The position numbers and the translations under genes were made by a program. DNA of 53,207 bases from Syntrophales bacterium (GTDB lineage Bacteria > Desulfobacterota > Desulfobaccia > Desulfobaccales > 0-14-0-80-60-11): contig JAQTXE010000001.1 of NCBI GenBank assembly GCA_028688935.1, positions 1-53,207 on the forward strand. The letters run 5' to 3'. The notes under the pieces were generated by a model. The model worked only from the letters and a program-made list of their open reading frames with translations, did not search any database and was not told the DNA's origin. Of the stretch, positions 8,349 through 25,597 are shown piece after piece. Position 1 is the stretch's first letter, and the number at the start of each line of letters is the position of its first letter.

Positions 8349-8661
8349 ATCTCCCTTCTATGTTCAATTGACCTCTTCAGACATTGTAGGTTCTATCTTT
8401 TTGTGCAATTTTCATATGATAGGCATGATAGCACAATTCCCGCCGTGAAAGTAATTTTCCCAAAAAATTGATATTGGACTTCCATAAAGCTTGCCTAAGC
8501 CCTGTTTAATCCGGATCATGTCTGGAATCTTCCGATATTTGGTGATAAGTTATGATTCTGACAGGTGGTTTGGACCGATAGCCTTCTCTATCTTAATCTT
8601 GATGGCCTTTGAGAAAAGAGACCAAGACCCATATGAGTCTCAATTAATAAGGAGGTCCGCT

Positions 8662-9660
8662 ATGGGAGCAATAAAAATCATGAGTCTAAATGGGCAAGAT
8701 ATGATTGATTTGATTCCCAAGAATCTCCAAATCCCGACGAGCGAGAGCATTAACTTTTGGAGAGCAAAACTTCTTGCTGCCATGATATTCGAAGTCGACC
8801 CTGATGTTGTCGGTCTTGTAGAAGCTCCTCCTGATGAAGACCGAACTCGAGCATTCGTAGATGGTTTTCTTGATGGAATATTCAATGTGCATCAAGCAGA
8901 AAAAAGAGGGGCATTAGGATTAGCCTTCTTAGTCCGAAAGACTGCAAATATTAGAGTTAACGTGCGGAGCAAGGATCAGAGTCTTAAGGATTTCAAGTTG
9001 GATGAGTTCGATTCCGACGGCGACGGGATTAGAGAGAAGTACACTTGGTGGAATCGTGTGCCTTTGGAAGCTGATTTTTCGGATGGCGGCCTCAAGGCAA
9101 AGACAACCTTCATCATAATTCACTCCAAGTCGAAGGGAGCGTTCATTCCAGGGGACCTATTTGCTTACGAACGGCTCTCGAAGGCAAACAGGATGAAGCT
9201 TCGTGCACAAGCGAATTCTGTCCGTAAAAGATTAAATCAACTGGTAGATGAAAATGGGAAGGGAAGAGTCGTTGTTATGGGGGATATGAATGACGGACCT
9301 GAGTTTGATATCCACGCAGCGCTTTTGGGTGGGTGTTTTTTAGAGCCTTTGATGGGAAGCATTTGGGACCCTGTGCGCATCTTCCACAACACGCATACAT
9401 CTTTTCCTACTAAAGACCGTTGGACCATTGATTTCCTTGATCGAGTGGTAAATCCACTTGGCTCTTCAAAATACGGCCAACCTTCAGAACTCAGGTCTTG
9501 GATTGACCATATCCTGGTGTCCCCCGAGCTAAAAAGCTCAGTGGTTCCGAATACCGCAGGAATCCTTCATAAGCAACCGAGTATTCTAGGGCTTCCCGGG
9601 AAGTTTAAAGGGGTAAGGGGCACAGACCATCATCCACCTTTTGTGGCTCTTGACCTGTGA
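8662..9660 (+). CDS. Endonuclease/exonuclease/phosphatase (EEP) family protein
   Basis: ATG 8662 is preceded by AAGGAGG (8649-8655); the track's 8491 start adds an unsupported extension. EEP motifs in order: IMSLNG, VGLVEAP, IIIHSKSKG, VVMGDMNDGPE, SWIDHILVS, GTDHHPPFVAL. Confidence 0.8.
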   Translation: MGAIKIMSLNGQDMIDLIPKNLQIPTSESINFWRAKLLAAMIFEVDPDVVGLVEAPPDEDRTRAFVDGFLDGIFNVHQAEKRGALGLAFLVRKTANIRVNVRSKDQSLKDFKLDEFDSDGDGIREKYTWWNRVPLEADFSDGGLKAKTTFIIIHSKSKGAFIPGDLFAYERLSKANRMKLRAQANSVRKRLNQLVDENGKGRVVVMGDMNDGPEFDIHAALLGGCFLEPLMGSIWDPVRIFHNTHTSFPTKDRWTIDFLDRVVNPLGSSKYGQPSELRSWIDHILVSPELKSSVVPNTAGILHKQPSILGLPGKFKGVRGTDHHPPFVALDL

Positions 9661-11531
9661 AAAAAGAACTTTTTGATTTGCAACGCTTTTATAAGGAGAT
9701 AAAGCAGATGCTGCTTTTGCAGGAACGGAAAGAACTAATTCGAATTCAAGATCAGCTTTCATCTCTTTCAAAAAGCCCTACTAAGATAACTGTTGAAGAT
9801 AACCGCAAATACTTTGACACACTGCGTGATGCATTTCGTCTTTTTGAAGATATCGTTTCCCGAGTAAATAAATCGGGGAGTGACCTTGATGGTGATGACA
9901 AGGAAAGCCTGTTTGGGACCATCGGCAATGCCATTATGGGGCTAGGTGGTGTTGCAGAGCCCTGCCCATATTCACTTAAGGATTATGACCATCTTGTTTT
10001 CGGGCCCTTCCTGGGTGTGAGTGATGAGGGAGGCGCAGTTCACGACATTCGGCGTGCAGCCATTAACTCTCCTAAGGTCCGTGCGCTCGGCACGGTCTCC
10101 CCAATTCAGGTCGGAGTTGCCCATGATGCGGAAAGGCTTGCGGCAGTTGGAGAGGTAGCTGTTGGGCCGGAGGAATATAGGGATATCATCCTGGGAAGTC
10201 AGGGCAGTATTCTTACCTCTACGAATGTTGGAACTAGGTTGAATCTACGCTACTACAAGATGCGGCCGATCCTTGGAATACCCGGAGGTTCTTTCGATGA
10301 TGCGATTAAAAATGCCACAAAAAAGCTCGGTGAACTTTTTTTGCCATTTTTGCAAACTCCGGACGGTAGGCCTAGACCTGTAACGGTGCTTGCTCGTTTT
10401 CCTATCAGGACACGATTCGCAAGGAGACTCCAAATCCTCAAGGCGCTAAATGCATCCATTGCCGGCAGTAGGTTCTGTGACCAGAGATGCCATAATTTGG
10501 GGCTTCTGGTTGATGTTTCAAGTGGGCAGAGGGGGTTGAATTTTGTAAAAGCCTCCATCGATCTGGCAAAGGAAGCAGGGATCACGGAGGTCGCAATACA
10601 AGGGCAAATCAGGTGGGAAGCTGAAAACAAGATCTCCATGCCTGGACTTCTAAATTACTTCCGGCCCGAACATGTCTCCGAGCTGATAGAATATGCCCAG
10701 AAAATAGGTGTGAGCTTGACCGCCAAAAATCTGGTAGATCCGGATACTGTGGCCCGAAATGTTTGGAGTAGCCTCCAGGCTGCGCGCAACATGGGCCTGC
10801 ACTTAGGCAAATACGGCTTGTTCCCGCTCACTTTCGAAGAATGTGATAAAGTTATGGGGCTTGTGCAGCGCTGGTTCTCTCATTGGTCGGCAGCTCCAGT
10901 CTTTTATCTGGATTTTCCACATATGAGCGAGAGCCATGTCTCCGCTGAAAAAGAAATTGATAAGGGTGCAAAAAGGTGGCTAGATATCGTTGCCAGGCAC
11001 GATATTCTAGTGGTTCTCCTCGACACCGCTGACAAAGATAAGGGGCGGAAATTGATCAAGAAAAGCCATGGAGACCGGGTCGGCATCTTAACCCTGGAGC
11101 AGCTTTCTGATATTGATCATTATGCGAATGAGCGGGGGATACGATGTCTGTGGGCCGGCGGCATAACGCTTCTGCAAGCCTTCGAACTTGGGAAGCTCAA
11201 GGTTTTTGGCATCTATGTGACCACTTCCACCGCAGAAATTCGACCCATCTCGGAACAATATGCCTCTGACCTCATGCTGACTGCCGAGAGAAAGCCGACT
11301 TTCCAGGGCGTTTATCGGGCCAAGGTTCTGCTGGAAGCTGGATTTCTGGTTACCCGCCTTAAGGAATTGAACCTACCTGCTGAGGCCGGGGCCCTCGATG
11401 AAGAGGCAACCAGACTGATCAGGATCATCGACAAAGCGGCCTCCGATGAACAAATAAACCCCATTGTGGAGCAAGTGGCTGGCCTTGCTCAAACTGCTTG
11501 GGCAAAGCATTTCAAAAGCCAGGTTGCCTAG
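9657..11531 (+). CDS. Uncharacterised 624-aa protein; C-terminal half TIM-barrel-like, with MfnB/DUF556-like motifs (tentative)
   Basis: GTG start overlaps the EEP stop (GTGA). Alternating beta/alpha pattern LGLLVDVSS / ITEVAIQG / VSLTAKNLVDPDTV...LHLGKYGL / PVFYLDF / ILVVLLDTADKDKG / IRCLWAGGI / VFGIYVTTS. The resemblance to DUF556 is from memory only. The N-terminal ~280 aa match nothing I recognise. Confidence 0.3.
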   Translation: MKKELFDLQRFYKEIKQMLLLQERKELIRIQDQLSSLSKSPTKITVEDNRKYFDTLRDAFRLFEDIVSRVNKSGSDLDGDDKESLFGTIGNAIMGLGGVAEPCPYSLKDYDHLVFGPFLGVSDEGGAVHDIRRAAINSPKVRALGTVSPIQVGVAHDAERLAAVGEVAVGPEEYRDIILGSQGSILTSTNVGTRLNLRYYKMRPILGIPGGSFDDAIKNATKKLGELFLPFLQTPDGRPRPVTVLARFPIRTRFARRLQILKALNASIAGSRFCDQRCHNLGLLVDVSSGQRGLNFVKASIDLAKEAGITEVAIQGQIRWEAENKISMPGLLNYFRPEHVSELIEYAQKIGVSLTAKNLVDPDTVARNVWSSLQAARNMGLHLGKYGLFPLTFEECDKVMGLVQRWFSHWSAAPVFYLDFPHMSESHVSAEKEIDKGAKRWLDIVARHDILVVLLDTADKDKGRKLIKKSHGDRVGILTLEQLSDIDHYANERGIRCLWAGGITLLQAFELGKLKVFGIYVTTSTAEIRPISEQYASDLMLTAERKPTFQGVYRAKVLLEAGFLVTRLKELNLPAEAGALDEEATRLIRIIDKAASDEQINPIVEQVAGLAQTAWAKHFKSQVA

Positions 11532-11574
11532 TTTTTCTTGATCGGGCCGGCCTCGACCCACCGAGGAGCAATGC

Positions 11575-12405
11575 ATGACAAGAAAAGGGAAGAATCACCT
11601 AAAGGGTGCGCGGGTCTATCTCTCCGGCCCGATGGATTTTGTCGCCTCAAGGGCCAAGGAGAAGAAATTTGGCTGGCGCAACCGCATCGGTCAGTTCCTA
11701 AAGTCATATGGAGTTACCGTTTTTGATCCCTGGAATAAGCCGGCAATCAGAGGGCTTCTTGAATACGGCAAAGAAGATGAAAAGAGCGCGGAAGCCAGGA
11801 AAAAATGGACTTTCGACCCCGGAGAGAAGGGCATCCAGGCGAGAGGCGAATGTGCCTCGAATTTTTGGGAAACACTCCACATAGATCTAAGGATGGTGGA
11901 CATCAGCGATTTTGTCATCGCCTATTGCCCAACCAATATCTACAGCGTCGGCACGGTTCACGAAATCGTGGTAGCCAGGCAAGAGAGAAAACCTGTGCTT
12001 TTTGTCAGCCCCCCAGTCTCTTTTCCCACCTTGAAGGAGCTTGAAAAGGAGTTAGAGGGGCATCGCCAGGCCTTGAATCTGTTGAAAAAGCTCAAAGACG
12101 AACTTCCTGTAAAAGAGAACGAGCGTGGCATCCCCAGTTTATGGTATATGCCTCTGGTAAGCACTGAGGGCTTTTTCGATGGCTTCGGCTTCAATGACAA
12201 GAAGCACGCCAATAAGTTCAAATGGCAGATGGGATCGGAGCTTGACGAAAGGGAACTGAAATGCCCTCCCAGACGTCCATTGCTCCCATATTTAGAATCC
12301 ATCGCCTCTGGCGATTTCCCCAAAAAATGGGATCATCGGTCTAACAAGTTGATACTGAACGATGACTGGCTACTTATGGAGCAGGCATTGCAAATTGGGC
12401 CTTAA
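11575..12405 (+). CDS. Nucleoside 2-deoxyribosyltransferase-like superfamily protein (NDT/Rcl/DUF4406 clan) with ~120-aa C-terminal extension
   Basis: 276 aa. GARVYLSGPMDF...GWRNRIGQFLKSYGVTVFDPW, then DISDFVIAYCPTNIYSVGTVHEIVVARQERKPVLFV. This gives the glycine-rich first strand and the GT-x-x-E catalytic-Glu region typical of the clan. Confidence 0.55.
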   Translation: MTRKGKNHLKGARVYLSGPMDFVASRAKEKKFGWRNRIGQFLKSYGVTVFDPWNKPAIRGLLEYGKEDEKSAEARKKWTFDPGEKGIQARGECASNFWETLHIDLRMVDISDFVIAYCPTNIYSVGTVHEIVVARQERKPVLFVSPPVSFPTLKELEKELEGHRQALNLLKKLKDELPVKENERGIPSLWYMPLVSTEGFFDGFGFNDKKHANKFKWQMGSELDERELKCPPRRPLLPYLESIASGDFPKKWDHRSNKLILNDDWLLMEQALQIGP

Positions 12406-12539
12406 AAGCATTTTTTCCATAAGAGAGTTAACCTTCTTTATATTTGTATTATATTTAGATAAGGATTTTAATTATCAGTGGTTGATTGTACTGCATTTAT
12501 TTAGATATTTCTATGCATATCAGCAAGAGAGGAATTAGC

Positions 12540-13829
12540 ATGTACATCTTTGAAGTTAAAATTAGCAATATTATGAGTTTCGATGACATCACTTTATCAA
12601 TTGAAAATAGTAAAAGTCCTTGTTTCTGGAATGTTATCCTTGGAGATAATTCCACGGGCAAAAGCTCAGTCCTTAGGTGCATAGCCATAGGACTTTCTGA
12701 TCAAAATACTGCCGCCACGTTAATAAAATCTTGGGGTGCCGACCTCCTGAGAGATAATAATAAGCCTGGGAAGATTATTGTCACGCTTGGTAAAGAAGGT
12801 TCTGGTCCTTTATTTACAATAACAACAAGAATTATTCCAAAGTATTCTATGGAACTGGTGCAACCTAAAATAATACGTCCCAAGGAGTATGAAGCTTATT
12901 TTTGGAATGAGCTTTTCATCTGTGGTTATGGGATTCAAAGATCAGGTGGTGGCTCTGAAATTTCTCATAAATATTCACCTTTAGAAGCAGTTATGACTTT
13001 GTTTGATTATTACTATCCCATTCAAAATATAGAATTAATATTACATAGAATATCGAGGGAGAGACCAGACCGGGAAAATAAAATATTAACATTAATAAAA
13101 GAAGTACTCATGCTGGACGAAGATCAATCCATTATATTAACTCCAAAAGGCCTAAAGTTCATATTCGATGGTAGAGAAGTATTCCTTGATTATATAGGTG
13201 ATGGCTATTCTGGCACGGCAACCTGGCTTATCGATTTTTTGGGGTGGCAACTTTATGCTGATCGTATGAGTAAAGACCAACAACTATCGGATCTAGTAGG
13301 GATAATACTCTTAGATGAGCTCGAGTTAGCATTACATCCTAAGTTACAAAGAAATATTGTAAGGAATCTTAAGGAGCATTTTCCGAAAGTCCAGTTTATT
13401 GTGACAACTCATTCTCCCATAATCGCTGCTGGTGCGGCTGATTTTCAAGATGCACGACTTTTTCCTTTTAGACTTGACAAGGATAAGACAATATTAATCG
13501 AAGATATCCCTTCTTTAAGAGGCCGAAGTGTGGATCAAGTGCTTTCATCCATGGTATTCGGTATGTACATAACTCTAAGCCCTGGGAGCGTTAGTGACAT
13601 TGATCGATTCTCAGAACTGATGAGTAAGTCCCGAGACCAGAATGAAGAGACTGAATTTCAAAAATTAAGAAAAATTCTTGAAGACGCTATGCCAATTGGT
13701 ACTACTGAGGCTGAGAGGCTTGTAGAGAAAGCAATCCTTGATGCTTTGGAAAAACTGCTGAATGAGAAGCCTAGTAAAGACTTAGAGTTGATTATGAAGG
13801 ATAAACTAAATAAATTGGATAAATATTAG
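12540..13829 (+). CDS. ptuA: Septu-type AAA/ABC-like ATPase (PtuA-like)
   Basis: ATG 12540 with an AGAGAGGA RBS. Walker A ILGDNSTGKSSVL, Walker B/D-loop IILLDELELALHP, and IVTTHSPII. It is followed 10 nt later by an HNH gene, which is the Septu gene pair. Confidence 0.7.
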   Translation: MYIFEVKISNIMSFDDITLSIENSKSPCFWNVILGDNSTGKSSVLRCIAIGLSDQNTAATLIKSWGADLLRDNNKPGKIIVTLGKEGSGPLFTITTRIIPKYSMELVQPKIIRPKEYEAYFWNELFICGYGIQRSGGGSEISHKYSPLEAVMTLFDYYYPIQNIELILHRISRERPDRENKILTLIKEVLMLDEDQSIILTPKGLKFIFDGREVFLDYIGDGYSGTATWLIDFLGWQLYADRMSKDQQLSDLVGIILLDELELALHPKLQRNIVRNLKEHFPKVQFIVTTHSPIIAAGAADFQDARLFPFRLDKDKTILIEDIPSLRGRSVDQVLSSMVFGMYITLSPGSVSDIDRFSELMSKSRDQNEETEFQKLRKILEDAMPIGTTEAERLVEKAILDALEKLLNEKPSKDLELIMKDKLNKLDKY

Positions 13830-13839
13830 AAGGCCAGCG

Positions 13840-14685
13840 ATGGTTAAGATTGAGTTTAAAGAGCCAGATACGCCTGTGTGGAAAAGGTGGCGAAGGGATT
13901 GCGCTACTGCTACAACTAAAGTTGTTTCAGCTGTACGTGAGGGTGAAAAGCCTGACATTAGAAATATTTATAAAAGAGCGAATATCAAGCAATCATTTTA
14001 TATGTCGATTGATGGGCCTTTTCATGGTAAGTGCGCTTATTGCGAGACACTTATTGTTGCGGATCAGTATGGGGATATTGAGCATTTCAGACCAGCACGA
14101 GCAGTTACAGATGAACTTGGCAAGCCGATAACATTCACTAAGGGGCATGGTGAAGTTCTAGAACATCCTGGCTACTACTGGCTTGCATACGATATCAGCA
14201 ACCTGCTCCCTTCATGCGAATTGTGTAATAGGCCAAACCCTAAGGGAATTGAAGAGAATGTAGTTGGGAAGCATAATAAATTTCCTCTTAAACAAGGTTC
14301 ACATGCCACATCTCCTGGAAATGAAGCTAATGAGGAACCTCTGTTAATCAATCCAATCCATGAGAATCCAGAGAATCATCTGAAGGTGGATTTCAAAACG
14401 TTTATGTTTGGAGGGGATGATCGAGGTCAGTGTTGCATACGAATATTCGGTTTAAATATTCGACCTGGCTTAGCGGCAAACCGTCGGACTGCCTACCAAG
14501 CCACCCTATCATGTTTGAACAAGTACATAAACAGTGTAGACGAGAAAGAAACGAAAGAATGTTTAGACGAACTTTGTGACATCGTAGCGGGCAAGAAGCC
14601 CTATTCTTTTATTGGTAGGGCTATTATTAAGAGCAAATTTCCATCTTTTTTTGGAGATTTGGAAGGAATGGTCTCTTCTATATAA
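13840..14685 (+). CDS. ptuB: Septu-type HNH endonuclease (PtuB-like)
   Basis: 281 aa. HGKCAYCETLI...GDIEHFRPARAV...YYWLAYDISNLLPSCELCNR gives the CxxC...H...CxxC-N HNH core in the arrangement seen in PtuB / TIGR02646-type proteins. Confidence 0.7.
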   Translation: MVKIEFKEPDTPVWKRWRRDCATATTKVVSAVREGEKPDIRNIYKRANIKQSFYMSIDGPFHGKCAYCETLIVADQYGDIEHFRPARAVTDELGKPITFTKGHGEVLEHPGYYWLAYDISNLLPSCELCNRPNPKGIEENVVGKHNKFPLKQGSHATSPGNEANEEPLLINPIHENPENHLKVDFKTFMFGGDDRGQCCIRIFGLNIRPGLAANRRTAYQATLSCLNKYINSVDEKETKECLDELCDIVAGKKPYSFIGRAIIKSKFPSFFGDLEGMVSSI

Positions 14686-14703
14686 TTTAGTGTGTGAATT
14701 AAA

Positions 14704-15870
14704 ATGTCATTTTTAATTGATACTTATATAAGCAATGTTAAAAGTCCTGCATTCGTATATAATGAAAATGAGATTTTATCAAAAATAAATATAATAAAAA
14801 ATATAAGTAAATTAGCGTCATGCAAAATTTATTTCCCTTTGAAAGCGTTTTCCTTTCCCGATGCATTAAAATTCATGGGAGAATACATTGATGGTTTTTC
14901 AGCAAGTTCGTTGTTTGAGGCAAGATTAGCGTTTGAAATGATAAATGCTAAAGAGAAGTCGATTCATATTACATCTCCTTTTATAGTTGATGAGGAACTA
15001 TCTTCTGTCATTACATATTGTAATTCTATTTCATTTAACTCTTTGGGGCAATGGCAGAGACTTCGTGGAATGGCTAAAGATAAGATTAGTTGCGGTCTCA
15101 GGATAAATCCAGGAAGTTTGTTTGTTAAAGACGTTAGGTATGATCCGTGCAGAAGACATTCCAAGTTAGGTATTCCGATAAAAATACTATCATCAAATTT
15201 CAATAAACATTCTGATTGGATGGAAGGTGTTAGTGGATTACATTTTCATACTAACTGTGAGTCAACAAATTTTGGAGAATTATTGGCAACTGTTAATTTA
15301 ATATGCAAGCACCTTCCACAGGTTCTTGACAGAATTGACTGGATTAACATTGGAGGAGGTTATCTTTTTGAGTCTGAACAAGATTTTGAGCATTTTATAG
15401 AGGCTGTCCTATTCTTAAAAAAGAAATTCGATATCCAAGTTATTTTTGAACCTGGGAAAGGAATAATTGGACAAGCTGGCTCAATTGTTTCAACAGTTGT
15501 AGACATTTTTTTAAATGACGGGCATAACATAGCAATCCTTGACACAACCACAAACCACATGCCTGAGGTTTTTGAATATCAATTCAAGCCTGATGTTGCT
15601 CAGGAGTCCGATGAAGGAAAGTACTCTTATATATTGGCCGGATCTACCTGCCTGGCTGGGGATATATTCGGCGAGTACCGTTTTGACAAGCCACTGAAAA
15701 TAGGTTCACGGATAGTCTTTGAAAACATGGGCGCATACACGCTGGTCAAAGCCAATATGTTTAATGGCATCAATCTTCCGACGATTTATGCATACACCCA
15801 GGATGGGAAGCTCGAAATGAAAAGGCAATTTACCTACGACGATTTCCTGTCGCGATGCGGGGGCAGATAG
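14704..15870 (+). CDS. nspC: Carboxynorspermidine/carboxyspermidine decarboxylase-like PLP enzyme (NspC family)
   Basis: 388 aa. SPAFVYNE, YFPLKAFSF, SASSLFEARLA, GLRINPG, HSKLGI, GLHFHTNCES, INIGGGY, FEPGKGI, AGSTCLAGDIFGEY, FENMGAYT, FNGINLPTIY. This is the full motif series of the fold-type III CANSDC family. Confidence 0.8.
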   Translation: MSFLIDTYISNVKSPAFVYNENEILSKINIIKNISKLASCKIYFPLKAFSFPDALKFMGEYIDGFSASSLFEARLAFEMINAKEKSIHITSPFIVDEELSSVITYCNSISFNSLGQWQRLRGMAKDKISCGLRINPGSLFVKDVRYDPCRRHSKLGIPIKILSSNFNKHSDWMEGVSGLHFHTNCESTNFGELLATVNLICKHLPQVLDRIDWINIGGGYLFESEQDFEHFIEAVLFLKKKFDIQVIFEPGKGIIGQAGSIVSTVVDIFLNDGHNIAILDTTTNHMPEVFEYQFKPDVAQESDEGKYSYILAGSTCLAGDIFGEYRFDKPLKIGSRIVFENMGAYTLVKANMFNGINLPTIYAYTQDGKLEMKRQFTYDDFLSRCGGR

Positions 15871-15872
15871 CG

Positions 15873-17291
15873 ATGATTCTTTATGAAAAGGAAATTACGG
15901 TTCCGTTAGTCGGACACCATGAAAGGTTATTGGACCACCTATCGGAAGTAATTCTGGAGAGACTGCCCAGATCCGAGATACCCGTTCGAGTCGCGGTTAC
16001 GCTAACCGACGAGAAAGGCTACCATTGTGAGCTGGGCATCCTTTCTGGCGCTGACCATTTTTTCGATGAAATGAGAGGCGCTATTTTTCAGTTCCAGAGG
16101 AGGGGTTTCGAGAATACCGGGCAATTCAATGCAGTATTGATCGTTCCTACGGGGGTCGGGGCCGAAATAGGAGGACATTCAGGGGATGCGGGGTCTGTTG
16201 CCAGGCTTCTGGCTTCTGCTTGTGACAACCTGATCACCCATCCCAATGTGGTCAATGCGTCAGATATCAATGAGCTTCCTGAAAATGGGCTTTATGTTGA
16301 AGGAAGCGTGCTGGCCCGATTTCTAATGGGAACGGTCAGCCTCCAGAAGGTTAGAGCAAATAGAGTCCTTTTGGTCATAGACAAACATGCAGATAAGTTC
16401 TTCTATGAATCTGCCGTGAACTCGGCCTCGGCCGCCAGGTCCTCACTGGGCTTGGATTGTCCGGGGGTGGTAATGCTCGAAGATAAAATGCTGATGCGGT
16501 CGTTATATTCCAGTTCTGGAAGGGCGGTTGGCAAGATCGACTATTTCGAGCGCGTATATGATGTGTTGACGAAGTACCGTCCCCAGTATGACGCCGTTGC
16601 CCTGTCTTCCGTGATCAAAGTACCGGAGAATTTCCACACTGACTATTATCTCAAAGACATGATCAATCCCTGGGGAGGCGTGGAGGCCATGCTGACCCAC
16701 GCCATCTCTTTGATGTTTAATATTCCCTCGGCTCATTCTCCCATGTTGGAGACACGGCAAATACTGGACCTTGAGTTGGGAGTGATCGACCCCAGAAAGG
16801 CTGCGGAGATTGTCTCTGTGACCTTCCTGCATTCCATCCTTAAAGGTTTGCAAAAGAGTCCGAAGATATTGAATGGCATGGCGCCTCTCGGTTGTCCCGG
16901 GGTATTAACGGCAGCCGATGTCTCTTGTGTAATCATCCCGGACGGTTGCATGGGTCTGCCCATTCTTGCAGCCCTGGAACAAGGGATACCGGTCATCGCC
17001 GTGAGAGAAAACAAAAATAGAATGCGGAACAATCTCGAAGAGTTTCCTTTCGACACAGGGCGGCTTTTCTTGGTAGATAATTATCTTGAAGCGGTCGGGG
17101 TGATGAGCGCCCTCAAGGCAGGAGTCTCTGTGGAGTCGGTAAGACGACCGCTAAAATACACAAATGTCTATGAAGAAACGGCCTCCTGCGCCGCGAGAGA
17201 AACCAGCAAGAAGCCATTGAAGTTTGCGAAAGGAATTGATGATGTTGAAGAGGATTTACTCCGAAAGGAAGGAAGTAAGGCGGTCAGGTGA
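15873..17291 (+). CDS. DUF3326-like protein
   Basis: ATG 15873 lies 2 nt after the nspC stop. The motifs LIVPTGVGAEIGGHSGDAG and INPWGGVEA match my recollection of the DUF3326 signature. No known function. Confidence 0.5.
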   Translation: MILYEKEITVPLVGHHERLLDHLSEVILERLPRSEIPVRVAVTLTDEKGYHCELGILSGADHFFDEMRGAIFQFQRRGFENTGQFNAVLIVPTGVGAEIGGHSGDAGSVARLLASACDNLITHPNVVNASDINELPENGLYVEGSVLARFLMGTVSLQKVRANRVLLVIDKHADKFFYESAVNSASAARSSLGLDCPGVVMLEDKMLMRSLYSSSGRAVGKIDYFERVYDVLTKYRPQYDAVALSSVIKVPENFHTDYYLKDMINPWGGVEAMLTHAISLMFNIPSAHSPMLETRQILDLELGVIDPRKAAEIVSVTFLHSILKGLQKSPKILNGMAPLGCPGVLTAADVSCVIIPDGCMGLPILAALEQGIPVIAVRENKNRMRNNLEEFPFDTGRLFLVDNYLEAVGVMSALKAGVSVESVRRPLKYTNVYEETASCAARETSKKPLKFAKGIDDVEEDLLRKEGSKAVR

Positions 17292-18649
17292 CCATAGAGC
17301 GCGTTCTGATTGTTTCCTCGCCCACTTGCGAGAAGGATAAGACTCAAGCCGGCGTCGTATATCTTGCAACAGTATTGAAGGATCTGGGGCTGGAATTTGA
17401 CCTGCTCGATTTGAGTGGCACGATTGATTATTTTGACCCTCCAGAAGAATTTTTTTCACCATGTGATTCTGAGTTCTGGCGGTCCAGTCGTATTTTCAGC
17501 GATTTCACCTGGCTGGATCAACACCTGCCGACGACCTACGCTGAATATGACGCAGTTTTTTATTCGTCTCTTTTTTCCCCGGACATCCTCATCCAAGGTC
17601 GACACGCCCTAAATCAGAAACATCATTTCCCAAACAGCCTGTGCATTGTGGGGGGCAGCGCCCTATCGTGTCTTGATGATCAGCAACTATCTGTTGTCAC
17701 TTCAATATTTGACTTTGTCTGTACTGGATACGATATCCGGGAAATGATTTCTGCAATTCTTCAAGAGAAACCAAGACTTCCCAAAAGCGGGGTTGGAAAA
17801 CATATAAGAACCAATGGCAATGTGTTTGTTCAGCCTGATTACCGACTAGTTGATGTCCGGCGATTTGTTACTTCTTATTCCGGCCATGGCTGTGAATGGG
17901 GAAAGTGCAGATTCTGCAATAGTTCCTTAAACTGCGGAATCTTCTGCAGACCAATTCCTGAACTCATTGATGAGATTGAGCAACTTGCCGGTCTGAACGG
18001 AATGGTCAAAGACGTGATGCTCTCCTCTGACTCCTTCACCGAAGACTACCTGACCTCGCTCGCCTCCTCGCTATCCGACAGAAAGTCCAAGGTGCCATAC
18101 AACGTAATGCTTCGGGGAGAGAGGTGGGTTTCTAACGGACTCGGGGATAAACTGAGAAAATCCGGCTGCTCGGACGTCTTTATTGGTGCCGAGGCGTTGT
18201 GTGATGAAATACTGAGTGTCATGAACAAAGGTTTGAATACGTCCAGCATCCTTAACGCGATCAAGGCCCTATCTTCTCATGTGCAGGTCATTTTGGGACT
18301 AATACTGTTCGTGCCTGGTGTAACAGAAAAGCAACTGAATGAACAACTGCAAAATATCGAAAAAATACTTCCACATGTTAGCGCCATCGAACCAGAAATT
18401 TTAACGGTTATACAGAGAACGGAATTCGCTAAAGAACCAGGGAGATACGGCATACAACTTTGGGCGAAAGAGAAAGCGGTTAATGATAGTTGGTGTTACG
18501 GTTTGAGCCCAGACATACCATGGACGTTCACATCAGATAGAGATGCACGAACTTGGTTCAGATACTATGAAAAGCTCAGGAGACTTACACAAGGTTTCGT
18601 CGAACCTCACTATTGGGATTCCATCGATGAAGTTCAATCACGCTTTTAA
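17288..18649 (+). CDS. B12-binding-domain-like / radical-SAM-like protein with non-canonical CX4CX2C motif
   Basis: GTG start overlaps the upstream stop (GTGA). The N-terminal Rossmann-like RVLIVSSP...VVYLATVLKDLG resembles a class-B rSAM cobalamin domain. The Cys triad GHGCEWGKCRFC has codons at 17891, 17906 and 17915. Downstream are SSDSF and FIGAEALCDEIL. Confidence 0.55.
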   Translation: MTIERVLIVSSPTCEKDKTQAGVVYLATVLKDLGLEFDLLDLSGTIDYFDPPEEFFSPCDSEFWRSSRIFSDFTWLDQHLPTTYAEYDAVFYSSLFSPDILIQGRHALNQKHHFPNSLCIVGGSALSCLDDQQLSVVTSIFDFVCTGYDIREMISAILQEKPRLPKSGVGKHIRTNGNVFVQPDYRLVDVRRFVTSYSGHGCEWGKCRFCNSSLNCGIFCRPIPELIDEIEQLAGLNGMVKDVMLSSDSFTEDYLTSLASSLSDRKSKVPYNVMLRGERWVSNGLGDKLRKSGCSDVFIGAEALCDEILSVMNKGLNTSSILNAIKALSSHVQVILGLILFVPGVTEKQLNEQLQNIEKILPHVSAIEPEILTVIQRTEFAKEPGRYGIQLWAKEKAVNDSWCYGLSPDIPWTFTSDRDARTWFRYYEKLRRLTQGFVEPHYWDSIDEVQSRF

Positions 18650-18844
18650 TTCCCATGGATCAAACACCTTACCACAATACAGTTTGCTCTGAATTAAATT
18701 TGACTTAACAATCTCCTCGTTTTGGTTCCGATGACTGCTCGTGGGTGCCTATTCCGCGCGTCCAAGATAAGGTGAAAAATGGAGTATTTTGTGCTATCGT
18801 GCTCTTCATCAAGGTAAAACCTACGAAAAAATGCGAGTAACCAT

Positions 18845-21800
18845 ATGAAAACCGTTCGTGACGCCTGCCAAATACAGCCAAATGCATTATCCATCAGGCT
18901 CAGCGACCAGATAGAGCGGCTCGATGAGCTGATCGAGGTTGAGGGCGGTGGCTCCGTCTTTTTCGAGAAGACCCACATCACCCAAGGGATGCAGGACCTG
19001 ATCAGTGAGGGCATCGCACGCTTGGGGGGATTTTCGTCACAGGCAGTCTTCCACCTCAAACAGGCTATGGGTGGCGGTAAGACCCACTTGCTAATTGGCT
19101 TTGGGTTACTCGCCCGGCATCCGGAATTGCGCAAGAAATACTGTGGCGGGATGCTTCACGCGTCTGCCTTCCAGAGTGCAAAAATCGCTGCTTTTAATGG
19201 ACGGAACAGCCCACATCATTTCTTCTGGGGCGAAATCGCCAGCCAGCTTGGGAAGGCCGATCTATTCCAGGAGTTTTGGGCTTCCGGGCCGAAGGCACCG
19301 GACGAACAGGCGTGGATCAAACTTTTTGATGGCACTGATCCTGTGCTGATCCTATTGGATGAAATGCCGCCTTACCTTGAGGATTTGGCCACCCGACCAA
19401 TAGGCGCTGGCACTGTTGCAGACATAGCTACTCGGGCCTTTGCAAACCTGCTCACCGCCGCAGGCAAGAAATCAAATGTGTGTATAGTGATTTCTGACCT
19501 ATGGGCCGCATATCAATCGGGTGGAGCCTTAATCAATCGAGCCCTTGACAATGCTCGCCAGGAACTCGGTCGCCAGGAACGCAATATCACTCCGGTAGAC
19601 CTCGCTGCCAATGAAATCTACGACATCTTGCGTAAGCGTCTCTTCAAATCGCTCCCCGACAAGGCGAAGATCGCTGACATCTCCGCAGCCTTCGGCCGAA
19701 AGTTAGAAGAGGCAGCTAAGTCCAAGACCGCCAGTCGCGGCGCTGAGGCAATCGCTGATGAGATTGCCGCCACTTATCCATTTCATCCGCAGCTTAAACA
19801 CGTCATTGCCCTGTTCAAGGAGAACGAGCAGTTTAAGCAGACCCGCGGCCTCATTGAATTGGTTTCCCGTTTACTCAAATCTGTTTGGGAGCGGGCAGCC
19901 AACGATGTCTTCTTGATCGGTCCGCAGCATTTTGATCTTTCAATCCCCGAGGTCCGCGACAAGCTCACTGAAATCTCCGGGATGCGCGATGTCATAGCCA
20001 AAGATCTATGGGACGCACAGCAATCCGCACATGCCCAGGTCATCGACCTGCAGACCGGTAGGGAAGCCGCCACCCAGACTGGTGCCCTGCTCTTCACGGC
20101 CAGCCTCTCGACCGCTGTCAATGCAGTAAAGGGCCTGACGCGTGAAGAGATGGTCGAGTGCCTAGTCTCGCCACTACGCGAGCCTTCTGATTTTCTTGCT
20201 GCCTTCGAAGAGCTGGAGAAAGTGGCTTGGTACCTGCACCATACTCCAGAAGGCCGCTACTACTTCGATCGGCAGGAGAACCTCACAAAGCTCTTGCAGA
20301 GTCTGGCGCATGATGCACCGGAGAATCAGGTTGACGACCTCATTCGACACCGCCTGCGCGAGATGTTCAAACCGGTTCGCAAGACAGGGTATGAAGAGGT
20401 TTTGCCTTTGCCCAAGCTGGAGGATGTGGTTGACCGGGTGCGCAAGGGGCGCGTACTCCTCGTAGTGAGTCCCGATTCAAAAATCCCGCCGGAGGAAGTC
20501 AAGAAGTTCTTTGAAGGCCTCAGCCAGAAAAATAACCTGTGTGTGCTTACTGGCGAAAAAACGGCCATGGGCAGTGTGGAAAAGGCCGCTCGACACCTCT
20601 TTGCCGCGCAGAAGGCAGATGGGCGGATTCCTAAAGGCCATCCACAACGGGACGACCTCGAACGCAAGCAGCAGGGCTATGAACAGGATTTCAATTCCAC
20701 AATTCTTAATCTCTTCGACAAGGTTCTCTTCCCGATCCATCGTGCCGGTCGGGAACCCCAACTTGCTCCCAAAGCACTGGATATGACACGCGATGCCACT
20801 AAACCCTTTAACGGTGAGGAGCAGGTTGAGAAAACCTTAATTTCCAATCCCCTGAAGCTCTACCTTGATGTCGAGAAGGAGTTTGATGCTATCCGTGACA
20901 AGGCAGAGGATCTGTTGTGGCCTGAGAACCAAGAAGAAGCGCGTTGGTCTGATGTAGCAGACCGTTATGCAGAACAAGCCGGCATGGTATGGCTACCTCC
21001 CAAAGGCCTCGAAGCTCTCAAGGCCATCGCTTGCAACCGTGGGCTATGGGAGGACCTTGGCACTGGTTACGTCACGAAGAGTCCGAAGAAGAAGCGCACC
21101 TCTGTCCAAGTCATCACTGAGTCCGGGCCTGACGACGAAGGCAAGGTGCGCCTGCGCGTCAACCCGCAGAATGCCGGTCCTGCACCCAGGATTTATTATG
21201 CTGAAGATGTATCAGTTTCTGAAGAAAGTCCGCAGCTGACGGACCAAATTTACACTACGTCGGCGCTGCGCATGAACTTCATGGTCGTCGATCCTTCGGG
21301 TCAGTATGAGACGGGCGATCCGGTGACTTGGTCCAACAAGCTCGTCCTACGCAACCGGCTTTCGGAGCACGACGGGAAGCGCAGCGTTGAACTCTTCGTC
21401 GCTCCCCGGGGATTGATCCGGTATACGCTCGACGGCAGCGAGCCGCGCGACGGCACTTCCTACGAAGGCCCGATCGCCATTGGCGACGCCGAGGTCCTCC
21501 TGCGTGCCTTTGGCGAGGCGGAAGGGCTTGAGACCAAGGCCGAGTTCCGTTTCCAGGCCAAGGGCAAGAAGGGCGTTGAGATTGACGATGTGAAGCCCGC
21601 ACATCTCGTCTCACGCACCGGCCGCAAGCTCGACTCTCGGGGCAAGACCTTCGAGGGCCTCAAACAAGCCGCTGAGAAGAGCGCCACCTTCGAGGGCATC
21701 GTTCTCAATGTCGGTCAGGGCAACCAGATGATCGCCGTCAATGTGGGAGAAATTGCTGTGGAAGGAACCTTCATTGAGGCGCTACTCGTCAAGGTGCTGG

Positions 21801-21928
21801 AGAAATTCACCCCGGATACTCCGATCACCATGACCTTCCGCAAGGCCCACTTCTCCTCGGGTCATGACCTCAAGGATTTCGCCGGAAAGCTCGGCATCGA
21901 CTTGCAGCAAGGGGATGTCGAGCAGTGA
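18845..21928 (+). CDS. DUF499-family ATPase (anti-phage-associated)
   Basis: 1027 aa. FFEKTHITQGMQDLI...HLKQAMGGGKTHLLIG (Walker A) and VLILLDEMPPYLE (Walker B). Overall layout is typical of DUF499 proteins found with DUF1156 methylases. Confidence 0.7.
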   Translation: MKTVRDACQIQPNALSIRLSDQIERLDELIEVEGGGSVFFEKTHITQGMQDLISEGIARLGGFSSQAVFHLKQAMGGGKTHLLIGFGLLARHPELRKKYCGGMLHASAFQSAKIAAFNGRNSPHHFFWGEIASQLGKADLFQEFWASGPKAPDEQAWIKLFDGTDPVLILLDEMPPYLEDLATRPIGAGTVADIATRAFANLLTAAGKKSNVCIVISDLWAAYQSGGALINRALDNARQELGRQERNITPVDLAANEIYDILRKRLFKSLPDKAKIADISAAFGRKLEEAAKSKTASRGAEAIADEIAATYPFHPQLKHVIALFKENEQFKQTRGLIELVSRLLKSVWERAANDVFLIGPQHFDLSIPEVRDKLTEISGMRDVIAKDLWDAQQSAHAQVIDLQTGREAATQTGALLFTASLSTAVNAVKGLTREEMVECLVSPLREPSDFLAAFEELEKVAWYLHHTPEGRYYFDRQENLTKLLQSLAHDAPENQVDDLIRHRLREMFKPVRKTGYEEVLPLPKLEDVVDRVRKGRVLLVVSPDSKIPPEEVKKFFEGLSQKNNLCVLTGEKTAMGSVEKAARHLFAAQKADGRIPKGHPQRDDLERKQQGYEQDFNSTILNLFDKVLFPIHRAGREPQLAPKALDMTRDATKPFNGEEQVEKTLISNPLKLYLDVEKEFDAIRDKAEDLLWPENQEEARWSDVADRYAEQAGMVWLPPKGLEALKAIACNRGLWEDLGTGYVTKSPKKKRTSVQVITESGPDDEGKVRLRVNPQNAGPAPRIYYAEDVSVSEESPQLTDQIYTTSALRMNFMVVDPSGQYETGDPVTWSNKLVLRNRLSEHDGKRSVELFVAPRGLIRYTLDGSEPRDGTSYEGPIAIGDAEVLLRAFGEAEGLETKAEFRFQAKGKKGVEIDDVKPAHLVSRTGRKLDSRGKTFEGLKQAAEKSATFEGIVLNVGQGNQMIAVNVGEIAVEGTFIEALLVKVLEKFTPDTPITMTFRKAHFSSGHDLKDFAGKLGIDLQQGDVEQ

Positions 21929-22503
21929 GTGAGCAGAAGCCCGCAACCGTGGACTTCGGCGCGCCCGACAAATTCGGGGCGCATCTCTTCCGGGTGGAGA
22001 TTCCGGCCTCACGCCAGGAACCGGTGGTCATCATTGAGGACTACGGTTACCGCGGCCAGGAGGGCGGGATACCCCGGGAGGAAGCCCGCGTCGTCCTGCA
22101 ACGTCCCGTGTGGTCTGCCATAGCCGATATTGCCCGCCGTGAGTTTAACGATCGACTTAAGGCCGCCAAGGTCCTCACCGGGCGCTGGCACACTGGGACG
22201 AACCTGGTGGACCGCCTCCTGGGAAAAGAGCTATGCGTGCTCGCCTGGGCTGCGGAAACGGCCAGCTCGGAGCAACTTCCCATCATTTGTAGCAAGTGGG
22301 CGGCCCTGCGTCCGGAGGAGCGCTGGTGGCTCTTCTCCATGACGGTGGCCGAGGCCGGTCTGCCGGAGGACACCCAGCGCGGCTGGCGCCGGGCTCTGTT
22401 CCTGGCGCTCTCCGACGGTGAAAAGGCCGCCTCCCGGAAACGCCGGCCGCGCCCCGTGGATGAGTATCTGTTCAAATTGCCGCTGTTTGAGGACTCCCAA
22501 TGA
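21925..22503 (+). CDS. Small cassette protein, DUF3780-like
   Basis: 192 aa. GTGA overlap with the DUF499 gene and ATGA overlap with the methyltransferase gene. The position between DUF499 and DUF1156 genes matches the conserved cassette. The sequence-level call is weak. Confidence 0.45.
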   Translation: MSEQKPATVDFGAPDKFGAHLFRVEIPASRQEPVVIIEDYGYRGQEGGIPREEARVVLQRPVWSAIADIARREFNDRLKAAKVLTGRWHTGTNLVDRLLGKELCVLAWAAETASSEQLPIICSKWAALRPEERWWLFSMTVAEAGLPEDTQRGWRRALFLALSDGEKAASRKRRPRPVDEYLFKLPLFEDSQ

Positions 22504-25500
22504 GCGAAACCGTCATCCCGTTTTCACTCAAAGATGCGCCTGCGCTCATCGAACGGCTGCTGCCAGTCCAAAAGCTCTCAGCGGAGGCATATAAAGAACA
22601 GATGGCTGTGCAGAGCAAGACTCTTACTACGCTTGGTAGTTATTGGAAGGGACGTAAGCCGCTAATCCTTGCTAAGGCATGTATTCTTGGCTGCCTACTG
22701 CCAGCCACTACCGACCCAACCCGTGACCTAGAAATCTTCGAAAAGCTCATGGCGATGGACGATGAATCTTTTGCAGTCCGCTGGAAACGTCGCCCAAAGC
22801 CGAAAGAGATTCTCGCAACGCTATCCATCGCTCGCATTGCTGACTACTTTGTTATTGAGCCCGAAGGTATACTGCCGGCGTCGGCACCGGTGGATTCGTC
22901 CGATCCCGATTATGCCAAATTGAAGATTGCATGGCGCGAAGACCTTCTTGAGTTGGAACGCCGCCGTTTGGAAGCACAACTGCTGCCAAAAGTGCCTTAC
23001 CGGGAGCGCGTAGATCAGGCTAAACGAGCAGAAGAGGTCGCACCTAACGTCCATGACCATGTCTGGGATACGGCTAATACTCATTTAGGTACAAATGCGA
23101 ATTCGTTACCGGACTTGGTAGAGCAACTTGGCATCATGCGCTTTGGCCACCGGCCGCGCCTTGCCGACACCTTTTGCGGTTCCGGTCAGATTCCTTTTGA
23201 GGCGGCCAGGCTCGGTTGTGACGTTTATGCCTCCGAACTCAACCCGATAGCCTGCATGCTCACATGGGGTGCATTCAATATCGTCGGCGGATCTGAAGAG
23301 AGCCGAGAGAAGCTCGTAAAGGACCAGCAGGAACTTGTGCACAGTGTCCAAGCAGAGATCGACAAGCTTGGTGTCGAGACTGACGGTAATGGCTGGCGAG
23401 CCAAAGTGTTCCTCTACTGTATTGAGGTCCGTTGCCCCCAAACCGGATGGCGTGTGCCATTGCTGCCGAATTTCGTGATAAGCAAGAGCCGGATGGCGAT
23501 TGCTGAACTGGTGCCTGATCCCGAGACCAAACGATACGACATTGCGATTCGAACCGGGGTCAGCGAAGCAGAAATGAAGGCAGCAGAGCTAGGTACTATC
23601 GGCCGCGAAGGCAAGTATGGTGAAGCGTATCTAATACATCAAGTAAATGGAGTAAATTTTAAAACCAAGATTTCTACCTTGCGCGGTGATTACCAGAAGC
23701 CCGATGGAACAATAGGTAATCGCTTGCGGTTGTGGGAAAAACATGATTTTATGCCACGCCCCGAAGATCTATTGCAAGAGCGTCTTTATTGTATTCAATG
23801 GATGCGTCCCAAAAAGAAAGGTAAGGGGTTTGAGTATGAGTTTCGCTCCATTAATGAAGGCGATCTTCGACGAGATCGTATAGTTCAGGAATATATTGCC
23901 GAGCATTTGGGAGCCTGGCAGGCCAATGGGATTGTGCCGGACATGCGTATTGAAGTGGGTGGGCCACCACGGTACCAGGGCCTTGATTTAATCAGAGCAC
24001 GCGGTTGGACGCATTGGCATCATCTCTTCACCCCTCGTCAACTTTTGTATTTAGGTCTTGCCAAGAGCTATATCAACGAAAAAGCCAGATCAAAAGCTGC
24101 CTTGATAGTTTTCTTCGCTCGCTTGCTTGATTGGTCTTCCAAATTATGCCATTACGGAACAGGAGCTGCAAGAGAATCAATTGCTCATACTTTTTATAAT
24201 CAAGCCCTTAACACATTGTACAATTATGGAGTCCGACCGTTTTCCTTTGCGCAAAGTTATTTGCTAGAGAGACCTGCGCTACACTCATTGGCAACAAACA
24301 CAGAAGTTGCTACTATCCCGGCTGCCAATATTGATGATAGGTTCGATCTCTTCGTTACAGACCCACCTTACGGTGACGCAGTGAAGTACGAGGAGATTTT
24401 AGACTTCTTTATAGCCTGGCTACGCAAACACCCACCTACAGAATTTGCTGACTGGGTTTGGGACAGCCGTCGATCAATGGCCATCCAGGGGGAAGGAGAA
24501 GATTTCCGGCGTGGCATGGTGGCCGCCTACAAACGAATGACTGAGTGTATGCCGGCTAATGGTATCCAGGTCATCATGTTCACCCACCAGTCTGGCGCAA
24601 TCTGGGCCGATATGGCGAACATAGTCTGGGCCTCAGGTCTGCAAGTCACAGCTGCTTGGTATGTGGTCACGGAAACAGACAGCCCGTTACGCGAGGGCAG
24701 TCACGTCAAGGGCACCGTGCTGCTGGTCCTGCGCAAGCGCCAGGGAGCGCACAAAATCAACCGTGATGACTTGGCCTGGGAGATTCAAGAAGAAGTCGAG
24801 AACCAAGTCCAGGCGCTCACCGGGTTGAATCAGGAAGCCAAGGGATTATACCGCGACGAGAATGTTTTCGAGGATGCCGACATCCAGATGGCAGGCTACG
24901 CCGCCGCCTTGCGAGTGCTGACCCGCTATGCCATCATCGATGGCCGGGACATGACTGTCGAGGCACTGCGCCCCCGGGTGAAGGGGGAGACTACTTTCGT
25001 TGACGGACTTATCGCCTTTGCCGTGGACACCGCCAACCAAAGTCTGGTGCCCCAGGGCATCGCCGATGGACACTGGAAGAAGCTCAATGGCGCAGAGCGT
25101 TTTTATCTGAAGATGCTCGAAATGGAAGTCCGCGGTGCCAAGACGCTGGACAACTACCAGAATTTTGCCAAGGCATTTAAGGTGCGAGACTTCCGTGCAT
25201 TCCTTGGTGATCAGCGGGCCAACCATGCCCGGCTCAAGAGCGCCGTCGAATTTGCCCGCGCCGAAATGAGTGAGGGCTCGGAGTTCTATCAGTCCGTGCT
25301 GCGCGCCGTGCTCTATGCCGTGATGGAACTGCAAAATAATGTAGACGGAGAAGTGGTGCTGGCCCACCTGACCCTCAACATTCCCAACTACTATGCCGAC
25401 CTTACCCGGCGTGAGCTGGCCATCGAGTTGGCCGATTACCTGGCCAAGCGACTCGAAACCTTGCGGCCTGATGAAGCCAGCGCGGCGCGGGTGCTCTGCG

Positions 25501-25529: not shown

Positions 25530-25597
25530 GAAAAGCTGGCCCTGAGGAAATGGCTCAAATGGGTCAGCCGTCCGGATAGAACCAGAGGGAAGCCGAT

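Follow-up and report, generated by a model that had tools for sequence, protein, structure and literature searches.

The ptuAB-decarboxylase-DUF3326-rSAM operon and its proteins

The stretch of DNA analysed here (the window) is 53,207 nt long, comes from a Syntrophales bacterium (GenBank contig JAQTXE010000001.1), and is a novel tailed-phage-like element. Positions 14704–18649 of its forward strand are occupied by three tightly packed genes coding for an NspC-like decarboxylase, a DUF3326 protein, and a radical S-adenosylmethionine (SAM) enzyme, designated here as rSAM. These genes are the 3′ end of a five-gene operon with the arrangement ptuA-ptuB-decarboxylase-DUF3326-rSAM. An initial annotation of the DNA had rightly taken the three genes for a functional unit but overlooked the Septu genes ptuA and ptuB, which lie directly upstream in the same operon and are the most unusual aspect of the locus. 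Canonical Septu is a self-contained two-gene system, whereas in the window the tandem pair is included in a longer operon.

All five genes are coded on the + strand. The first one, ptuA (12486–13829), codes for the ABC-type ATPase of Septu (PADLOC E 2e-57; AAA_15/AAA_21 matches); its likely start is at position 12540, and the alignment consensus opens at MYI. It is followed by ptuB (13840–14685), coding for the HNH nuclease (PADLOC E 1e-43), and by the decarboxylase gene (14704–15870), the product of which has 388 aa. The ORF of the DUF3326 protein spans 15855–17291 and codes for 478 aa, but the likely start is at 15873, giving 472 aa. This start is favoured by a database copy (P0001) of 472 aa and by homologues opening with MxLxEKEI, and with it the gene begins 2 nt past the decarboxylase stop. 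The rSAM gene (17288–18649; 453 aa) shares its first 4 nt with the end of the DUF3326 gene (GTGA). Neighbouring genes are thus separated by 10 nt (ptuA and ptuB), 18 nt (ptuB and the decarboxylase gene), −16 or +2 nt (the decarboxylase and DUF3326 genes), and −4 nt (the last two genes). The operon is flanked by spacers of 134 nt and 195 nt. The first of these, an AT-rich intergenic stretch 5′ of ptuA (12406–12539, + strand), is a candidate promoter region of the operon, judged from its position alone; a scan for consensus promoters and terminators gave counts equal to those in shuffled sequence and was uninformative. The three downstream ORFs were confirmed as intact. As the same decarboxylase-DUF3326(-rSAM) order recurs in many unrelated loci, the grouping is not a matter of chance.

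The decarboxylase belongs to the pyridoxal 5′-phosphate (PLP)-dependent enzymes of fold III and matched both domains of the Orn/DAP/Arg decarboxylase fold in Pfam (Orn_DAP_Arg_deC). Its best curated model was NCBIfam nspC (TIGR01047), with 338.1 bits, which is under the equivalog cut-off of 409.05. Four carboxynorspermidine decarboxylases (CANSDCs) are the closest solved relatives, with 195–273 bits and 33–39% identity; diaminopimelate (DAP) decarboxylases reached about 50 bits. Invariant with these four enzymes are the PLP lysine K47, H182, the glycine loop G217–219, E249-P250-G251 (EPG), and C316 and D320 (CxxGD). With the PLP lysine and the catalytic Cys and Asp kept, the enzyme looks active. 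In a neighbour-joining tree, the decarboxylases linked to DUF3326 were monophyletic and apart from the four solved CANSDCs, and they depart from them at about 12 otherwise conserved positions, e.g., D143, R145, Y220, and E288. Judged by these sequences, the clade is sister to the characterised CANSDCs.

No match to the saccharopine-dehydrogenase or carboxynorspermidine dehydrogenase (CANSDH) families was found among the scanned window ORFs of at least 150 aa, from which a few opposite-strand ORFs overlapping called genes were left out; the same had been stated in the initial annotation. The gene could then code for a plain CANSDC whose dehydrogenase is elsewhere in the host, with the DUF3326 and rSAM genes as unrelated neighbours. 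The nearest solved and curated relatives are indeed CANSDCs, and the catalytic residues are intact. This explanation is nevertheless highly improbable, given the score under the nspC cut-off, the separate clade with its own substitutions, and the fact that the gene is carried by a mobile cassette of a phage-like element. Moreover, adjacency to DUF3326 is kept in about 30 loci, and unrelated decarboxylases replace the gene in about 100 others.

The DUF3326 protein matched PF11805 (E 6.7e-91) over profile positions 1–336 of 337. More than 6,700 homologues were found at E < 1e-10; the best 120 of them, which represent many bacterial phyla and one archaeon, share 57–91% identity with the window protein. 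The domain is also present in cyanobacteria and plants (Pfam, literature). The AF2 model (pLDDT 79.5, pTM 0.82) has a small N-terminal alpha/beta domain and two further alpha/beta domains. When this model was compared by Foldseek with PDB and BFVD, only weak and partial flavodoxin-like or periplasmic-binding-protein-like matches and no real relative were obtained, and a profile search of PDB sequences found nothing, so the chemistry of the protein is not revealed by homology. Resemblance to arginase-like or PdxA-like motifs had been considered and was dropped, as no fold match supported it.

The rSAM protein matched Radical_SAM (PF04055, E 5.7e-10) and, weakly, cobalamin-class radical-SAM models. 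On the curated subfamily models that it matches, it scored 17–49 bits against cut-offs of 251–600 bits. Its AF2 model (pLDDT 88.9) was matched by Foldseek over the full length to MgmA, TsrM, OxsB, AprD4, CysS, and TokK, with TM 0.6–0.68 and E 1e-12 to 1e-15. The model predicts an N-terminal Rossmann-like domain followed by a radical-SAM barrel, which is the layout of cobalamin-dependent (class B) enzymes; as a description of the predicted architecture, the original label "B12/rSAM-like" was right. This two-domain architecture is shared with TsrM, OxsB, MgmA, CysS, and TokK, and with AprD4 as a look-alike, since AprD4, which is among the top matches, has been described as a cobalamin-independent diol dehydratase. 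Cobalamin-dependent radical-SAM enzymes have the canonical CX3CX2C motif, whereas the spacing of the Cys triad is CX4CX2C here, and the scores on curated models are low. The family comprises 104 proteins (E < 1e-5), two of which match PF02310. In all of 30 members compared, with identities as low as 36%, C202-x4-C207-x2-C210 and a GAE motif are invariant, so that this enzyme, too, looks active.

Pairing of DUF3326 with decarboxylases and the putative product

Genomic neighbourhoods were surveyed in 80 genome loci (of at least 496 DUF3326 genes in GTDB), five metagenome-context loci, and 73 viral contigs from IMG/VR, in which ORFs were called and neighbours clustered. A cellular set of 83 loci consists of the genome and metagenome-context loci and the window, minus three loci without a DUF3326 ORF. 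Across 160 loci from bacteria, archaea, and phages, the DUF3326 gene almost always adjoins a decarboxylase gene. Calling the window decarboxylase an orphan, as had been done, was therefore mistaken, as DUF3326 is its fixed partner. The initial annotation had also allowed that neighbourhoods of DUF3326 might show no link to either enzyme class; the link to decarboxylases is strong, and the rSAM family is linked to DUF3326 as well.

An AdoMetDC-like gene (about 125 aa, Pfam AdoMet_dc, related to SAM decarboxylase, AdoMetDC) is directly upstream of DUF3326 in 40 of the 83 loci of the cellular set. An NspC-like gene adjoins it in 29, at position −1 in 24 and at +1 in five; the remaining loci are mostly cut by contig ends. 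The AdoMetDC-like gene is upstream of DUF3326 in about 58 of the 73 viral contigs and the NspC-like gene in none, and most viral DUF3326 proteins are short forms without the first ~85 residues. A third partner fold was found in locus L245, where the decarboxylase is of the fold-I Orn/Lys/Arg type (OKR_DC_1) and stands with rSAM and a preceding GNAT acetyltransferase next to the BREX genes BrxA and BrxB. DUF3326 is the constant partner of decarboxylases of three unrelated folds. The AdoMetDC-like partners retain the Ser, His, and Cys of pyruvoyl enzymes, by which they look active, and score 24–30 bits against the AdoMetDC equivalog cut-off of 75.65. Phage class-1b AdoMetDC homologues of similar size are weak ornithine or arginine decarboxylases and not AdoMetDCs (PMC9992855; PMC10407285).

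When 160 DUF3326 proteins were placed in a distance tree, loci differing in partner type, Septu link, or presence of rSAM were intermingled within the cellular clade, and the nearest relatives of the window protein (62–72% identity) alternate between the NspC-like and AdoMetDC-like partners. Decarboxylases without homology to each other have thus been exchanged many times next to a DUF3326 that hardly changed, which is strong evidence that the decarboxylase and DUF3326 are a two-enzyme functional unit in which DUF3326 has one reaction. A large conserved family with no assigned chemistry thereby gains a function that can be tested, namely formation of the bond in a polyamine-type pathway. In the metagenome locus L171 the order is PtuA-PtuB-DUF3326-AdoMetDC-like-DUF3326, with seemingly two full-scoring DUF3326 genes, possibly due to duplication or mis-assembly.

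The only genetics found on a decarboxylase-DUF3326 pair is a 2026 preprint on pavABC (bioRxiv 10.64898/2026.06.12.731819), the genes for pavettamine, a hydroxylated polyamine. PavA is an NspC-like decarboxylase with a Rieske domain, PavB is a DUF3326 protein, and PavC is a JmjC hydroxylase. In that work, N-(5-aminopentyl)pentane-1,5-diamine required both PavA and PavB, cadaverine was present in all strains, and the pav genes of B. pseudomallei reconstituted the first steps in E. coli. Making a C–N bond is beyond both decarboxylases and Rieske domains, so PavB is likely the bond-forming enzyme. The label "Rossmann NAD(P)" given there for PavB was neither supported nor contradicted by fold searches of the window DUF3326. 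Both systems have an NspC-like decarboxylase beside DUF3326 plus tailoring enzymes, the window trio corresponding to the core pair and one tailoring enzyme. They differ in that the decarboxylase is fused to a Rieske domain and tailoring is by JmjC in pavABC, whereas the window has a stand-alone decarboxylase, a radical-SAM enzyme of cobalamin type, and no Rieske or JmjC domain. Also, pavABC is known only from Burkholderia sensu lato and has no link to PtuAB, and PavB is a distant relative of the window DUF3326.

The observations are all of comparative genomics and concern the genes present, their conservation, the statistics of their pairing, the folds, and the catalytic motifs, which are intact. 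From them we infer a chemistry for DUF3326, an order of steps, a reaction for rSAM, and a coupling to PtuAB. The reading preferred here, to which we give about an even chance, is that the operon codes for an obligate polyamine-type synthase pair with a tailoring rSAM enzyme, linked to Septu, and that the product likely regulates or accompanies the nuclease. DUF3326 would form a C–N bond between an amine and an amino-acid-derived unit, replacing a partner of the CANSDH type, and the decarboxylase would remove the alpha-carboxylate from the DUF3326 product or from its precursor. The rSAM enzyme would tailor the product, most simply by radical C-methylation of the skeleton or a similar change to it, in parallel with the oxygenases of pavABC that decorate the triamine. 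The outcome would be a small molecule resembling a polyamine but modified.

Three orders of the steps can be envisaged. DUF3326 may make an N-alkylated diamino acid that is decarboxylated afterwards, similarly to the CANSDH route, which would fit the NspC family and the PavAB genetics. It may instead transfer a SAM-derived group, which would fit the alternation of AdoMetDC-like and NspC-like partners. In the third order, the decarboxylase would supply a diamine that DUF3326 condenses in the manner of homospermidine synthase; this one would fit the use of OKR_DC_1 as a partner and the published finding that small AdoMetDC homologues act on ornithine or arginine. With the CANSDH/CANSDC pathway, including its carboxyaminopropylagmatine variant (PMC10599626), the window shares the decarboxylase fold and catalytic residues and probably the logic of making an N-alkylated diamino acid and then decarboxylating it. 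It differs by the missing dehydrogenase, the score under the cut-off, the position of the decarboxylase in a sister clade, and a partner, DUF3326, of unrelated fold.

The second order leads to an alternative close to the original proposal, according to which a SAM-dependent enzyme installs a carboxyaminopropyl group that is then decarboxylated. DUF3326 would move the 3-amino-3-carboxypropyl group of SAM to an amine, nucleotide, nucleobase, or nucleic acid, the NspC-like enzyme would decarboxylate it, and rSAM would modify it; in AdoMetDC-like loci, DUF3326 would instead move aminopropyl from decarboxylated SAM. A parallel is microcin C maturation, in which MccD transfers carboxyaminopropyl from SAM and the PLP decarboxylase domain of MccE acts afterwards. 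Both the AdoMetDC and NspC families act on 3-amino-3-carboxypropyl groups, and a swap in the order of steps would explain their alternation beside a nearly unchanged DUF3326. Large phage contigs place the cassette among genes for ribonucleotide reductase, ThyA, dCMP deaminase, and dUTPase, and nucleotide-processing genes similar to nucleoside 2-deoxyribosyltransferase (NDT) recur beside the system. However, the scores of the AdoMetDC-like partners are far from those of genuine AdoMetDCs, the phage class-1b homologues decarboxylate ornithine or arginine (PMC9992855), and a fold-I Orn/Lys/Arg-type decarboxylase serves as a partner too. PavA and PavB build their product from C5 and not C3 units, and Foldseek detected no methyltransferase-like or other known SAM-binding fold in DUF3326. 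Transfer from SAM is, in our view, unlikely. Nothing was found that points specifically to DNA hypermodification, which had also been proposed.

Returning to the synthase pair with a tailoring enzyme, the distribution of rSAM agrees with an accessory role. The gene is present in only eight of the 160 DUF3326 loci, so rSAM is a dedicated accessory and not the feeder of the decarboxylase, and its assumed role as essential maker of the decarboxylase substrate is ruled out. Wherever its context was checked, it adjoins DUF3326 and the decarboxylase: in the window, in the metagenome contig L005, and in seven out of seven further contexts checked. These seven distant contexts include an archaeal-looking contig, contigs of 177 kb and 325 kb that carry replication genes of phage type and genes for nucleotide metabolism, and a BREX-adjacent locus. 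Contigs of equal size in the homologue lists of both families point to at least eight further pairs of rSAM and DUF3326. With only 104 proteins and a single genomic context in all loci checked, the family is a good target for enzymology. Phage contigs L089 (325 kb), L243 (177 kb), L244, and L108 carry rSAM with the AdoMetDC-like gene and short-form DUF3326 among nucleotide-metabolism genes; in L089, a gene similar to HNH homing endonucleases interrupts the AdoMetDC-like/DUF3326 pair.

Other neighbours of DUF3326 also point to polyamines, namely glutathionylspermidine-synthase-like genes, DUF350, RCK-gated K+ channels, and a GNAT. Some loci have the order DUF2170-PspA-glutathionylspermidine-synthase-like-AdoMetDC-like-DUF3326. 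They are of the same operon types as the AdoMetDC operons of PspA/YjfC type (PMC11237479), with DUF350 and K+ channel genes, the membrane-stress genes of which are missing from the window. PMC11237479 cites Li et al. 2019 for a polyamine-independent role of AdoMetDC in these operons. A full-text search for DUF3326 did not find the family named in the literature on PspA/YjfC operons.

Association with Septu

PtuA and PtuB are directly upstream in 25 of the 160 DUF3326 loci, with both the NspC-like and the AdoMetDC-like partner. In all linked loci, ptuB and the decarboxylase gene are separated or overlap by no more than 50 nt, and the order and strand are fixed across many phyla. To define how specific the link is for PtuA, a metagenome search was done with a PtuA alignment and the 80 closest relatives of the window PtuA were kept; a locus was called positive when a decarboxylase gene followed PtuB, plus DUF3326 where the contig allowed. 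In the close PtuA clade (clade-HMM score of at least 247), the module follows PtuB in 14 of the 23 loci with enough downstream DNA, compared with none of about 42 loci of generic Septu (score of at most 207); this contrast is somewhat inflated, as the clade HMM was built from linked loci, while retrieval and ranking were independent of it.

About one in two of the linked loci code for a divergent MfnB-like aldolase (4HFCP_synth; 126 bits against a cut-off of 341) upstream of PtuA (L003, L006, L011, L012, L018, L032, L037, L042, L050, L059, L084, L169, L173, L177, L179, L181, L182, L192, and L193), often accompanied by an uncharacterised protein of 394 aa, c11. The window has neither gene. PADLOC gave no matches for the other upstream partners, i.e., a TM protein, HD-like, HDOD, and cyclase-TPR proteins, c11, and the MfnB-like protein, and there is no support for the view that every context is a known defence system.

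In the preferred reading, the synthase pair and its tailoring enzyme would be co-transcribed with the PtuA ATPase and the PtuB nuclease in the window and in one Septu clade. The small molecule would most likely regulate the nuclease, e.g., by holding it off until infection, or act alongside it. It may thus be an inhibitor that decays on infection or a co-effector, or it may have no relation to PtuAB at all. A comparable arrangement is retron-Eco7 (Ec78), which co-opts Septu and in which an extra module is reported to restrain PtuAB (PMC12819146; PMC12640716; PMC13376987). The two share an ATPase and HNH nuclease pair in one operon with an extra module that possibly restrains the nuclease. That module is a reverse transcriptase with msDNA in the retron, whereas small-molecule enzymes stand in its place in the window.

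A stronger form of the preferred reading would be an undescribed Septu subtype, in which PtuAB is controlled by, or acts with, a dedicated modified polyamine made by the decarboxylase and DUF3326, with or without rSAM. The phage copies of the pair could then have supplied the module or serve against the nuclease by silencing it. DUF3326 would further represent a new fold of polyamine synthase, and it could explain AdoMetDC homologues that are without a known aminopropyltransferase partner. All of this is tentative and rather doubtful at present. No description of the combination of Septu with decarboxylase-DUF3326(-rSAM) was found in the sources searched, nor is there such a Septu variant in PADLOC v2. 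The system is most interesting for its Septu-linked operon, which is unreported, and for the copies of the pair that phages carry. If the link is functional, an anti-phage nuclease would be wired to small-molecule biosynthesis, and the phage copies would suggest an arms race over the metabolite.

Several observations weigh against a functional unit of synthase pair and Septu. About 70% of the cellular loci and all 73 viral contigs have no PtuAB; in phages and in most genomes, the decarboxylase-DUF3326 pair clearly does not need the nuclease. PtuA and DUF3326 show almost no correlation in their pairwise divergence (Pearson 0.27, Spearman 0.08), which indicates that the modules recombine and shuffle; strict co-inheritance of PtuA and DUF3326 as one unit was rejected on this ground. 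None of the proteins of the trio is covered by a model in PADLOC v2. As to the chemistry, the predicted structure of DUF3326 appears to have no solved relative or recognisable cofactor site, and its most conserved glycine-rich loop, PTGIGAEIGGHSGD, was modelled at low confidence. Transfer of function from PavB to the window protein would span a distant relationship; tblastn with DUF3326 gave no match in PLSDB plasmids (E 1e-5) or in INPHARED phage genomes, in which no cultured phage has the gene. Finally, NspC-like and AdoMetDC-like partners are both under their equivalog cut-offs, and so the substrate may be no classical polyamine intermediate.

The loci without PtuAB also agree with an explanation in which PtuAB is an ordinary self-sufficient Septu and the trio is an auxiliary polyamine module for phage replication or packaging that only travels in the same cassette. 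The weak co-divergence fits it as well; phage polyamine enzymes are well documented (PMC9992855), and there are known cases of defence genes embedded in other systems (bioRxiv 10.1101/2024.01.29.577857). Independent cargo would hardly be expected to keep a fixed order on one strand, with the decarboxylase gene within 50 nt of ptuB in every linked locus and with both decarboxylase types, or to be restricted to one PtuA clade with which MfnB-like and NDT-like genes co-occur too. We consider this explanation improbable.

The phage-like element and its mobile cassette

The 5′ part of the element codes for ParB, a DnaN-like clamp, a recombination directionality factor, a PD-(D/E)XK nuclease, and a helicase, followed by the cassette with the trio. 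After the cassette there is a DUF499/DUF3780/DUF1156-methylase/PLD-SNF2-helicase system and then portal, prohead protease, major capsid, and connector genes. The 3′ part contains more ORFs without family matches, a lysozyme-amidase, and an ABC-3C system. The portal is at most 33% identical to any phage portal in INPHARED.

Positions 8639–18669 (+ strand) are 82–87% identical at the DNA level (blastn) to the unrelated metagenome contig L005, and the match stops 20 nt past the rSAM stop. The trio is thus part of one 10-kb mobile cassette, comprising an Exo_endo_phos nuclease/phosphatase, a GH97-like protein, an NDT-like protein, PtuA, PtuB, the decarboxylase, DUF3326, and rSAM. The G+C content is 0.36–0.50 in the cassette and 0.55–0.61 in its flanks. 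Within the operon, it is 0.36–0.41 in ptuA, ptuB, and the decarboxylase gene and 0.46–0.50 in the DUF3326 and rSAM genes, while the phage backbone has about 0.6. Given this uneven composition, the cassette itself may be a mosaic.

Directly past the cassette, at 18845–28309, genes for a DUF499 ATPase (HmaC-like), DUF3780, a DUF1156 methyltransferase, and a PLD-SNF2 helicase form a Hma-like system, with four out of four full-length PADLOC matches. The adjacency of a Septu-type cassette to this four-gene system recalls the published embedding of Septu in Hma-type systems. A third defence-type locus is at 50960–52637 and codes for the ABC-3C conflict-system proteins CTD7 and Middle Component 3.

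The NDT-like protein coded upstream of ptuA (11575–12405, + strand) has a weak match to Pfam Nuc_deoxyrib_tr and is an optional recurring neighbour; homologues adjoin the system in L005, L042, L176, and L182. Homology to the 394-aa protein c11, coded upstream of PtuA elsewhere, was considered and is not significant (BLASTP E 0.15). In the window, the GH97-like (624 aa) and NDT-like (276 aa) proteins are coded separately at 9657–12405, while a single gene for 891 aa is present at 1864–4539 of L005; this difference represents either a split or frameshifted gene in the window or a fusion in L005.

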